This document shows positions 2,253 through 12,545 of a stretch of DNA of 13,002 nt, piece by piece. Source of the DNA: Methanobacterium sp. (GTDB lineage: Archaea; Methanobacteriota; Methanobacteria; Methanobacteriales; Methanobacteriaceae); the NCBI GenBank assembly GCA_003166335.1, contig PMWA01000109.1:1-13002 (forward strand), read 5' to 3'. The notes under the pieces were generated by a model that saw nothing but the letters and a program-made list of their open reading frames with translations, was not told the DNA's origin and searched no databases. Position 1 is the stretch's first letter, and every line of letters begins with the position of its first letter. Both the position numbers and the translations under genes were made by a program.

Positions 2253-2531
2253 CAAAATCACCAACATACATATATGCTTATATCTTATTTTTTTCCATGT
2301 TTTTGAATCTTATTTGAAGTTTCAAAAATGATTACCAATAATTCGCCCATTTTGAATTTGAATGAAAAAAAATTAATAATAATTTTGTTAACCTAATAAA
2401 TAAATGGAACTATCAGAGAGGGGTAGATATGCAATAATTTGAAATTTTTAAGTGATCTCATTTTTTTTGTTGGCAGGAGAGGATATTTGTTCTCATCATT
2501 TTTGACCCTAAAAATATTATTGTATAAAAAC

Positions 2532-3014
2532 TTAACCTAATTTCAAATATCCTTTTTGAGGTTCATATACAATGCTTTTACTTTTCAATATTCTTAATAT
2601 TTCATAGGCTTCATCTTCAATTATATCATGTTCTAATAGTTCATTAAAAACAGCATATTTTGGAGCTATACCACCATGTTTATCCTCAAATATTTCAATA
2701 GCTGCTAAAAAAATTCTTATTTTATCCCTATCGTTCTCTTATCCTATATACAAGCTATTATCATGAATTATACACTGATCTTCAAACCAATCTTTAACTG
2801 GTACTGTAGGATCGTTCCCCATATCCCTAATTTCTTTTTCTAATCTTCTAATCTGATTAATAAGAGCATCTTCAAGTTCTGATTTAAAATATGGGTCTAT
2901 TTTTCCATATCTAATATGGATCAATGACATGAATTTGAATTTAAGATAGGGATCTGTGTCAGTTAAGTCTTTATGCTTCAATGCTTCAGTAATCAATAGT
3001 TTAAAGTCCTCCAT
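2532..3014 (-). pseudogene. Unrecognised N-terminal domain plus MCM C-terminal winged-helix-like domain, interrupted by an in-frame TAA
   Basis: RBS GGTG (3022-3025), ATG at 3014, 91 codons, TAA at 2739-2741, then the same frame stays open for 68 aa: ENDRDKIRIFLAAIEIFEDKHGGIAPKYAVFNELLEHDIIEDEAYEILRILKSKSIVYEPQKGYLKLG*. This matches the archaeal MCM C-terminal pattern RDK...E..GG.AP...E..LRILK...I(F/Y)EP..GYLK. Confidence 0.72.
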
Positions 3015-3544
3015 ATTCAAACACCACAAATGTTTCAATTCCCTATTAATATTGAAATAATAAGTTCAAAGATAAATACTTATTCAATATAACATCTAAA
3101 AAGATCTCCTCCGAAACAAAATTAATATTATGGGGGTTTAGAGTTTATTTTAGTACTTATCATCGATACTTTCGTTGAACATTGATATTTTTAAGCCATA
3201 TGGTCGGTTATATGAAGTTTAAATTAAAAATAATTAATTTTATTTAAAACATTAAAAGTATAAATGTTATTCGAATATTTTCTATTAAATTAAACATTTT
3301 ACTAATCTTAATTTCTAAAATAATTGTTTTTGCTTAAGATCGATTCGTTACTCTTAAAACATTTGTTCAAACTGAGTCTTCTTATTTAAATAAAGATAAA
3401 AAATTCATATAATTCTGATCTTTGATGGATTATATGAGGTGGAATGATATATATAAAACTTCAAATAAAAACTCGAGGCGGAAATAAATCCAAAAATAAC
3501 TCAAGTTAAAATAATTCGTTTAAAAATAATAATGTTAAAATAAA

Positions 3545-4002: not shown

Positions 4003-4692
4003 TTAGAAAGTATTGTTATATTTTGATCTTTGTATTATTATTTTGAGGTATGCACCTATGAACCCACATACCAATCCATTGACAATTCCCAGTAGGATAT
4101 ATAGTATTAAGTAGAGATATGATCCTGTTAGAAGGGTTCCTAAAAAGAAAGAGATAGCACCAGTAATTAATGCATTTTTAGTTCCGATTACTATACTCTT
4201 AGATAAATAACCAACCATTATTAATAATATGAATGTTAAGAGTGTTAAAAAGCCATGTCCAAATGCTAATATTATTGTTATTACTATTGTTGCAGGTATA
4301 ACCAGGATCCATTGAATATTATGGAAATTTAGTTCATTTTTTATGGAATTAATGAAACCGGATTGCATACCATAAGAATCTCTGTGAATTGTATATTGAC
4401 TTCGATTATTAAGTATATGTTTTCCGATATTATTATAATAGAATTGTCGTAATCGGTTTTTTAGGTTTATTTTTCGAAATGAGAATATGGATTGCATTTT
4501 ATCTTGTAATATTTCTTTTTTTGTAGGTTTTCTTCTTATTGTGAATGGTTTCCAATGAGGATCTATAATATCTAAATTTTCAATATATCTTATTTTACCA
4601 CCGCAATCACATTTATCAACAAAATCTTTTGCTGATTCACCTGATTGCAATTTATAGTAACTTTTACATTTATTACAAATTAGATAACCCAC
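4003..4692 (-). CDS. Membrane protein with N-terminal zinc ribbon and about 4 Gly-rich C-terminal TM helices (possibly DUF5518-like)
   Basis: AGGTG RBS, GTG start. [36 protein letters not shown], a basic linker, then a hydrophobic C-terminus with VGYLS...GTKNALITG and [11 protein letters not shown]. Confidence 0.8.
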
Positions 4693-10084: not shown

Positions 10085-11164
10085 TTGGGTCGCCTTGTTT
10101 GTAAGAACTGTAACGGTTACTATGTATTAAAACCAAATGAACGTGCAAGAGATTTTGAATGTTGTAGTCTTTGTAATGGAAAATTAGAGTACGTCAGAGA
10201 ATCTAAAGAAAAAACTAATTTTAATACATATAAAAATTCTGAATATAATATGCATGTTAAAGACGGCGTTTCATCTGATAAAACTTATAATAAAAAGACA
10301 TCATCTGAATCGAATCATCCTGATTGGGATATTTCAACTGATGTAGATGGTTTGATTAGACGTCAGAAACGTTTAGCTGAAGAAGAGAGGTATTCTAATT
10401 CTTATAAAAAAGGTGTTGTATATAGACACGGAAAGGTTAAGACTAATGTAAAAAGTTTTAAAAAAGGGAAGGGTCGTTCTTATATTGATGAAAAAATATT
10501 TAAGTATAAATTGTTTATGGTTCTTGGTGTAATTGTATTTATGATTGGGATTATTGGAGTGATTTTTTCATTTTTATTATCTTTTTTTGTTTTAGTTGGA
10601 GCATTTATACTCTTTTATGGATATGATAATTCTAAAAGGTGGATAAAAGGGTCTAAGGGAGAAAAGTTAGTAGCAAAACACCTGAAAGTACTACCTAAGG
10701 ATTATTTTGTTTTTAATAATGTATTTCTCCCTGTTAATAGGGGTGATATTGATCATATTGTTGTAGGTACTAATGGAATTTTTGCTATTGAAACTAAAAA
10801 TCTCAGTGGTTGTTTTATCGTAGATGATGATGAATGGTTCTATGAACGTCATTATGAAGTAGTAAGAAGCAGATCACAGCCAGGAAAACAAATAAAAGCC
10901 AATGTTATGATTTTATTAGATTATCTTAATTCGAATGGGGTGAATACTGAGAATTTGTGGATTAATTCTATTGTAGCATTTACTAATCCTAATTTGATTA
11001 TTGAAGAAAGACCTAAACATTATGATATTCTAAGTCCTTCAAAGATTCCAGAATTCATAATCAGTCGGAAAAAAACATTAAATAAAGAGACTTTAAAAAA
11101 AGCTGTTAACTTAATAGAACCATATACAAGAGATTCATCTATAGATAAAATGATTAGGAATTAA
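10085..11164 (+). CDS. NERD (nuclease-related domain) protein with N-terminal zinc ribbon and two central TM helices
   Basis: GAGGGGTG RBS, TTG start. CKNC...CSLC leader; hydrophobic LFMVLGVIVFMIGIIGVIFSFLLSFFVLVGAFILFYG; NERD motifs GSKGEKLV, VFNNVFLP, DIDHIVVGTNGIFAIETKN and PGKQ. Confidence 0.9.
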   Translation: MGRLVCKNCNGYYVLKPNERARDFECCSLCNGKLEYVRESKEKTNFNTYKNSEYNMHVKDGVSSDKTYNKKTSSESNHPDWDISTDVDGLIRRQKRLAEEERYSNSYKKGVVYRHGKVKTNVKSFKKGKGRSYIDEKIFKYKLFMVLGVIVFMIGIIGVIFSFLLSFFVLVGAFILFYGYDNSKRWIKGSKGEKLVAKHLKVLPKDYFVFNNVFLPVNRGDIDHIVVGTNGIFAIETKNLSGCFIVDDDEWFYERHYEVVRSRSQPGKQIKANVMILLDYLNSNGVNTENLWINSIVAFTNPNLIIEERPKHYDILSPSKIPEFIISRKKTLNKETLKKAVNLIEPYTRDSSIDKMIRN

Positions 11165-11516: not shown

Positions 11517-12545
11517 TTATGTTATTTTTGCTATGTTGCCCATGATTGCGGCTTTGAGTACTACACCATTGACGGGTATAGTAGTTCTGCGACCGTCTTT
11601 GTTGATTGTTAAGGTGGTTTTATCAGTGCCTGTATAGTATTCTGTTTTTTGTTTGTTTTCTCTTTGTGAACCTATACCATCCTTGTAAGGTTCTATAGCT
11701 ACTATTTTCGTTAAATCTATATTGGTGGTTCTTTTAGAACCTATAAATATTAATCTTTTATTTGTAAGTACAAGAGTTCCCTGGTCTATGTTTTTAAGTT
11801 CTTCATGGGATTCGCTTCGTGCTGAAACAGCACCTAATCTGAAAGAAACACCTTTAGCCATTCTGAAAGTGGGTCCTCCATAACCTCCTACTGTTTGCCT
11901 TACAGCTCTAGGTTCACGGAGGGTAATATTATGCATAATTAGGGATGTTTCTTCATTTCTTTTAAGAATGATAGGAGAGTTCGTATTGCTATTGATTTTT
12001 GCAATGCCTTTTTGAAGTCCATTAATGAATTCATTAATGTCTCTATTTTTGACTGCTTCTGCTTCTTTTATTTCTCTTTGTCTTTTAATTTCATCAATTT
12101 TTCTTTGTTCCGCGTCAGAGACACCTCCACCTGCTATACGAGTCCATTCATCTACGGTGAGAGTTTGACCTTTGTATTCCTGCCAGTTTTCATAGTTTGT
12201 ATGGGAAATATGGGTTAGCTTATATTTTTCGCCTTTTGGTTCAAATTCTGCTCCACAATTATCACATTTAAAGATTCTTTTAGTACCTAAACCTAGAGCT
12301 CCCTTATGAACAATAGAGTTTAGTAATCCAGTTTTACAAACGGGACAATCAGGTTTATTACTATTATCATTGTTGGATGATAATTTTGCTCCGCAATCTA
12401 AACAGAATTTAGCATTAACCGGATTGTTATGACCACATTCAGGGCAAATCATTTTATTATCAGCTGTTTCTAATTTACCCCCGCATTCTTCGCAAAATTT
12501 AGCGTTTACAGGATTTTCTGTGCCACAATTAGAACAAGTAACCAT
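11517..12545 (-). CDS. Zinc-ribbon protein (double zinc ribbon plus a third ribbon) with C-terminal PH-like domain
   Basis: CSNC..CEEC, CPEC..CLDC and CPVC..CDNC; a charged helical linker; then ILKRNEE, YGGPTFRMAKGVSFRLG and DQGTLVLTNKRLIFIGSKRTTNIDLTKIVAIEPYKDGI, typical of prokaryotic PH-like domains. Confidence 0.85.
   Translation of the reverse strand: MVTCSNCGTENPVNAKFCEECGGKLETADNKMICPECGHNNPVNAKFCLDCGAKLSSNNDNSNKPDCPVCKTGLLNSIVHKGALGLGTKRIFKCDNCGAEFEPKGEKYKLTHISHTNYENWQEYKGQTLTVDEWTRIAGGGVSDAEQRKIDEIKRQREIKEAEAVKNRDINEFINGLQKGIAKINSNTNSPIILKRNEETSLIMHNITLREPRAVRQTVGGYGGPTFRMAKGVSFRLGAVSARSESHEELKNIDQGTLVLTNKRLIFIGSKRTTNIDLTKIVAIEPYKDGIGSQRENKQKTEYYTGTDKTTLTINKDGRRTTIPVNGVVLKAAIMGNIAKIT
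12381..12536 (-). repeat. Internal duplication (90-nt period) encoding two zinc ribbons
   Basis: CSNCGTENPVNAKFCEECGGKL vs CPECGHNNPVNAKFCLDCGAKL; NPVNAKFC is identical. Confidence 0.8.

Follow-up and report, generated by a model that had tools for sequence, protein, structure and literature searches.

The 13,002-nucleotide stretch of Methanobacterium DNA analyzed here (the window) contains a gene that ends in an MCM-type winged helix and encodes no helicase. This raises the question of whether the gene is a relic of mcm or a protein in its own right, and of what an MCM tail would do apart from its motor. We find that the gene joins an orphan helical domain to a tail of MCM origin, that it is under purifying selection and has a patchy, accessory distribution, and that the copy in this genome is a nonsense allele. 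The initial annotation had observed an MCM winged helix behind another domain in a nonsense-interrupted frame, and this observation is confirmed.

Layout of the gene

The features of the gene and its surroundings are as follows.

2532..3014, minus strand: full 160-codon gene, consisting of an orphan helical domain, a linker, and an MCM-type winged helix; interrupted at codon 92
2817..3014, minus strand: orphan N-terminal domain, residues 1-66, with three predicted helices (2-13, 22-36, and the long last helix 41-66)
2742..2816, minus strand: linker, residues 67-91
2739..2741, minus strand: nonsense codon TAA (codon 92), Leu in near-identical intact alleles
2535..2738, minus strand: MCM C-terminal winged helix (PF21120), residues 93-160
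3022..3027, minus strand: Shine-Dalgarno-like GTGGTG
2429..3123, no strand assigned: widest DNA shared with relatives' loci, a single-gene cassette

Translation of the minus strand from 3014 to 2532 gives 91 codons beginning with the ATG at 3014, the TAA at 2739-2741, and then 68 open codons ending in ...IVYEPQKGYLKLG, with a stop at 2532-2534, as had been described. The GTGGTG motif lies 7 nt upstream of the ATG, and GGTG is conserved in 8 of 9 aligned upstream regions (one of these being a near-identical copy of the window), which agrees with the proposal that the gene has its own ribosome-binding site. Promoter and terminator scans gave results at chance level.

The nonsense codon is a real and common allele

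Contigs from 3 of the 4 examined runs spanning position 2740 carry the window's letter, upholding the stop, and the fourth has a Leu codon. The three stop-bearing runs (four were examined of 20, mostly peat metagenomes) represent three studies, none of them flagged as the window's source, and since the stop recurs in these and in many contigs, a sequencing error at 2739-2741 is rejected. The identical stop is found in a metagenome locus (L027). Records of the exact 91-aa product come from 36 contigs and those of a 99-aa version with an upstream start from 4, and near-identical intact versions are recorded on 1, 3, and 1 contigs. The TAA at codon 92 is a real, common allele, commoner than the intact one, and intact alleles are found in the same habitat. 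The single nonsense change, as originally noted, stands where near-identical intact alleles have a Leu codon, and given the small number of other changes the loss of the tail is recent.

No ATG, GTG, or TTG occurs after the stop before residue 143. Re-initiation of the tail is rejected on this ground, and the tail is predicted to be absent from the product of this allele. This genome's allele would likely yield the 91-aa N-terminal part alone and be null for tail function.

The tail is a diverged MCM winged helix

The tail had been called MCM-like, and by Pfam and PDB sequence, and tentatively by fold, it fits MCM rather than generic winged helix-turn-helix regulators. It matches PF21120 (MCM_WH_arc) over profile positions 1-63 with 48.6 bits (cut-off 26.1; E 8.3e-13), and this is the sole Pfam family at E<=0.1 for the read-through protein. 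PDB entry 2MA3, the C-terminus of M. thermautotrophicus MCM, is matched at E 1.1e-12, the other PDB match having E 0.29. The top Foldseek match is also 2MA3 (E 0.015, rmsd 2.9 over 64 columns) for a whole-protein model with pLDDT 43, which is too low in quality to be relied on, and in this low-confidence model the secondary structure of the tail agrees with three helices and a short wingless hairpin.

The truncated winged helix of archaeal MCM (PF21120; 2MA3, 2M45) likewise lies at the C-terminus behind a flexible linker. Family tails are 32-44% identical to MCM tails, and the tail in the window is 37% identical to that of the host MCM (contig C8). The family tail and 21 distinct MCM tails have 21 positions in common, and the MCM residues kept include R96/K98/R100 where helix 1 begins and, within the hairpin, E151/P152/G155/Y156/K158. 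In contrast, 17 positions, including most of helix 2, are fixed differently in family tails, which also have a one-residue deletion relative to MCM tails and do not retain two residues preceding helix 1 that are invariant in 21/21 MCMs. Net charge is 0 to +6 in seven intact family tails versus -3 to +1 in the 21 MCM tails. Outside the tail, the family differs from archaeal MCM in lacking the N-tier, AAA+, and lid, in having the orphan helical domain ahead of the tail, and in a linker that is unrelated or barely related.

A profile of the family tails also matches the winged helix of Pyrococcus RPA subunit Rpa2 (9F26, 9F27, 9F2A) at E 0.001-0.009, with the hairpin motif common to both. This related small winged helix, likewise at a flexible C-terminus, recruits proteins of the replisome, binding primase and PolD (PMC11686378), but it is a far weaker profile match (E 0.001 versus 7e-37 for 2MA3), and the family lacks OB folds.

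The N-terminal domain is an orphan and not an MCM lid

The first 91 residues had been described as lacking AAA+ motifs, and no Pfam family matches them. Searches of Pfam, PHROGs, NCBIfam, PDB sequences, the Atlas, and 1.84 billion representatives gave no identity for the N-terminal domain. Its model is an all-helical monomer of three helices with pLDDT 65, and three fold searches gave no match (top VIA Z 5.2, rmsd 2.5 over 49 residues). The best fold score falls within the background for helical models, and this absence of a match does not amount to a new fold. A presumed likeness to ribbon-helix-helix DNA-binding proteins found no support from Pfam (no match at E<=10), from the moderate-confidence, all-helical monomer model, or from the fold searches.

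When residues 1-92 were compared by hhalign to the lid-and-linker region of MCMs from Methanobacteria and of truncated paralogs, the probability was 0.8% and the score 14.8, a level reached by 19 of 200 column shuffles. Lid homology of the N-terminal part is rejected as not significant, in keeping with its earlier description as an unrecognized domain. Residues 55-72 contain an 18-column echo of the final lid helix and linker of MCM that is not significant, and profile comparison found no lid homology for residues 1-54. The 160-aa read-through protein has no match to PF00493 (the AAA+ domain, which holds Walker A/B and the arginine finger), to PF17855 (AAA-lid), or to PF14551 or PF17207 (N-terminal A / Zn / OB tier), there being just 91 aa ahead of the tail; the NCBIfam MCM model scores 15 bits against a cut-off of 940, in the tail region alone. 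The host also encodes a separate MCM and two Cdc6 genes, and a split host mcm is rejected since the host MCM, on contigs C7/C8, has its own tail. Since the searches turned up neither further relatives nor a fold match for the N-terminal domain, and its lid homology is not significant, we conclude that the gene is not an mcm fragment.

A narrowly distributed family under selection

Of 32 candidates searched with the read-through protein, 10 matched, made up of eight two-part clusters and two truncated clusters. The eight clusters are 160-166 aa long and 75-99% identical, with intact relatives ranging from P0002 (99%) to P0009 (75%), so that homologs of about 160 aa with both parts in one ORF do exist, as anticipated. 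Among proteins of 122-2000 aa the N-terminal domain occurs in eight clusters, 8/8 of which also contain PF21120, and of the 20 matches that a profile search returned from 1.84 billion representatives, none is to the N-terminal domain alone. The domain is present in 4 of 19 genomes of the same genus including this one, the other three being intact. One genome from another genus was added when 329 genomes of the class were screened with PF21120 and the 52 that had at least two matches were followed up. Across 185,579 species genomes, a scan found the same four relatives, all in Methanobacteriaceae, the family to which intact homologs are confined among those with a taxon given.

Weak PF21120 matches in ORFs of 155-200 aa were excluded as a different family, judged from four inspected. 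This conserved family (G000 C50 ~60-590; L084-L087), with apparent tandem winged helices, occurs in many Methanobacteriaceae.

Whole-gene Nei-Gojobori dN/dS was 0.19-0.44 across 27 informative pairs from eight copies, one of them identical to the window. In pairs with dS>0.5 it was 0.19-0.27, with both domains constrained, and in the closest pairs, which have few synonymous changes, the tail gave 0.8-0.9. The intact gene is thus moderately constrained and narrowly distributed, and we take it to be functional.

The family had been suspected to be undescribed, and within the literature and databases covered it appears so. The literature search, with most subscription journals outside its coverage, returned no paper on helicase-less MCM-tail fusions, and 'PF21120' was not found in the literature searched. 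Partial MCM homologs are already known in general terms (PMC7776575, PMC3914693, PMC3972481, and PMC12934983); the tail-only form of a known domain appears to be new.

A lone cassette at varying sites

DNA common to relatives' loci extends over ~480-690 bp per pair around the gene, and the flanks vary by lineage; the family gene stands alone as an accessory cassette whose site varies. A mobile-element origin, which the initial annotation had raised, did not find support: no family copy was present in the viral contigs, phage, or plasmid collections searched, and no terminal repeats or mobile-element ends were seen around the gene. Neighbors are mostly ordinary accessory genes, with some loci toxin-antitoxin-like or containing Fic, and some near SoFic-like, PIN, and nucleotidyltransferase genes. 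Judged by eye, no family copy adjoins a recognized replication gene, and P0002 matched 0 families of PADLOC 2023 at E<=1e-5.

Three neighbors recur with the copy from the other genus (L070), namely a small zinc-finger gene that the window also has, a gene for a PIN protein (L031), and an unassigned 106-aa gene (L023). Just downstream of the family gene, a 52-aa CxxC...CxxC gene occupies 2109-2267 of the window (minus strand), and a 78% identical copy lies at 6992-7155 in L070, ~400 bp from the family gene and in opposite orientation. The ORF region at 1818-2091 of the window, which has no family match, has an 82% identical second copy elsewhere in the genome (G000 C111 1870-2140). The window also encodes a Cys-rich membrane protein that matches no Pfam family (4003-4692, minus strand), a NERD nuclease that has a membrane segment and whose N-terminus is Cys-rich (10085-11164, plus strand), and a double-zinc-ribbon/PH-like protein (11517-12545, minus strand).

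Other helicase-less proteins with an MCM tail

Other proteins without AAA+ also bear the MCM tail in Methanobacteriaceae. Those below were taken from 19 chosen representatives and 20 chosen genome regions.

P0051, P0054, P0063: MCM tail with T5orf172/MUG113 (GIY-YIG-like)
P0050: MCM tail with the MCM N-tier, without motor
P0055, P0058-P0060, P0065, L068, L069: MCM tail with small unassigned domains
L071 5941-6585, minus strand: MCM tail with HNH, the tail upstream of the nuclease; the region looks viral by eye
L077 1879-3018, plus strand: MCM tail with PIN_8, after a dGTPase-like gene
L076, L083: MCM tail with HEAT repeats

Like the 160-166-aa family, these fusions (P0051, P0054, P0055, P0058-P0060, P0063, L068, L069, L071, L076, L077, L083) carry the MCM tail on an unrelated domain, but their N-terminal domains are unrelated to that of the family (7/7 hhalign comparisons below 1% probability) and they have separate places in the tail tree. 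In this tree of 71 rows and 72 columns, many forks of which are open, the 160-166-aa family forms one clade (100/100) on a branch of 0.91 changes per column. The 15 other fusions are scattered, several beside particular MCMs, and given the starred branches the helicase-less label must change at least 6 times. Judging from the tree, helicase-less proteins captured the MCM tail in several separate events.

At L069 2697-12501, a Pycsar-like pair, a helicase-less MCM-tail protein that belongs with P0055, P0067, and P0068, and a BREX-like operon lie in a row. In the scan for defense genes, 11 of 24 proteins matched, the 24 having been picked by eye with no baseline. In a 97% complete genome (G137), PF21120 is matched best by a 176-aa fusion on contig C10 (L068 6255-6782); the match list for this genome holds no full-length MCM tail, which an assembly gap may explain.

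Several MCM paralogs (L072-L075, L078, L079, P0052, P0062) consist of AAA+, lid, and tail without the N-tier, and in two N-tier-less paralogs a T5orf172/MUG113 domain replaces the N-tier. Extra or truncated archaeal MCM paralogs (PMC3914693, PMC7776575) are likewise accessory, patchy, and MCM-derived. They differ in retaining AAA+ parts (as do L072-L075, L078, and L079), while the family retains the tail alone, with no mobile element seen.

Possible functions of the intact protein

The intact gene would produce a catalytically empty protein with a diverged MCM winged-helix tail. Our favored reading, held tentatively, is that this protein may be a protein-binding mimic of the MCM tail, titrating Cdc6/Orc1 or docking on MCM. 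By analogy with MCM-tail biochemistry, the tail would bind protein rather than DNA. Its partner would be that of the MCM tail, most likely the Cdc6/Orc1 loader, with the MCM AAA+ ring ranked second, and through this binding the protein would be a dispensable brake on the loading of the helicase. The N-terminal helices may serve in dimerization or tethering.

The mimic reading rests on the basic residues of helix 1 and the hairpin motif, which are kept although helix 2 is remodeled, and on published binding of the tail to Orc1 and AAA+. According to PMC4357721, the AAA+ domain of MCM is contacted and braked by the linker together with the beginning of helix 1, where the family keeps its basic residues. 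PMC12141716 and PMC11686378 describe binding of the Sulfolobus MCM tail to origin-bound Orc1-1, and PMC4619765 and PMC13049513 a tail that restrains activity or assembly. Also counted in favor are the MCM-type tail with its 21 shared positions, the dN/dS values, the separate host MCM and Cdc6, and the independent captures. Against the mimic reading count the divergence of the tail with its 17 fixed differences, the non-conserved linker, and an AAA+ allosteric contact that is species-specific and linker-dependent (PMC4357721). The Orc1 contact is published for Sulfolobus, no copy was seen beside a replication gene, the tail dN/dS reaches 0.8-0.9 in the closest pairs, and the truncated allele is the commoner one. 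In M. thermautotrophicus, the Cdc6 contact is mapped to the N-terminal part of MCM.

Alternatively, though we consider this somewhat unlikely, the tail may have been repurposed as an adaptor or regulator with a new partner (a further replisome component such as primase or PolD, an unrelated protein, or DNA) and would no longer mimic MCM. The long, fully supported family branch, the fixed changes in helix 2, the shift in net charge, and the match to the primase- and PolD-binding Rpa2 winged helix fit such a history, but the retained helix-1 basic residues and hairpin motif do not. A repurposed DNA-binding protein, as the initial annotation had offered, is weakened by the isolated M. thermautotrophicus (Mth) and Sso MCM tails, which did not bind DNA according to PMC4357721; no DNA-binding fold was found for the N-terminal domain.

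It is unlikely, in our estimate, that the protein is a defense bait whose tail would trap the Orc1/Cdc6-like loaders that belong to invading plasmids or viruses, either by itself or together with neighboring toxin genes. Such a role is suggested by the fusion of other tails to HNH, PIN_8, T5orf172/GIY-YIG-like, and HEAT domains, by the positions of L069 between Pycsar-like and BREX-like genes and of L077 after a dGTPase-like gene, and by the SoFic-like, PIN, and nucleotidyltransferase genes near some family loci, but the family has no PADLOC match or effector domain, most neighbors are ordinary accessory genes, and the scanned proteins were eye-picked. Distinctly doubtful is the broader idea that nucleases, repeat proteins, and small adaptors of archaea repeatedly receive a copy of the cell's own MCM tail, which would be an integrated decoy baiting the Orc1/Cdc6-like loaders with which viruses and plasmids borrow the helicase of their host, with the 160-166-aa family as a stand-alone trap.

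We regard as quite unlikely a mobile-element gene that co-opted the host loader and is now stranded in chromosomes. Its patchy presence at different sites, in 4 of 19 same-genus genomes and one of another genus, would suit such an origin, as would the mobile-element derivation often given for extra archaeal MCMs (PMC3914693) and the related HNH-tail fusion in the viral-looking region of L071, but no copy occurs in the viral contigs, phages, or plasmids searched, terminal repeats are lacking, and the shared DNA stops close to the gene. The idea that the gene is a functionless remnant of an mcm duplicate is largely refuted and very improbable, since, for all that partial MCM homologs are known (PMC7776575), residues 55-72 weakly echo the lid end, and the gene is broken in many contigs, residues 1-54 have no detected lid homology, length is constant at 160-166 aa, and the gene has its own ribosome-binding site and a dN/dS well below 1.

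Implications

The value of the family is limited by its rarity and by the broken copy in this genome. It bears on the regulation of helicase loading in archaea and on the identity of the MCM tail's partner in Methanobacteria. Here a tail under selection occurs naturally apart from the helicase, and its intact and truncated alleles share one habitat, which offers a direct test of tail binding. That unrelated domains have captured the tail repeatedly suggests a module of general use for targeting or as a decoy, and if the decoy reading is true, these proteins would form a guard-and-decoy layer that draws on the machinery of replication.
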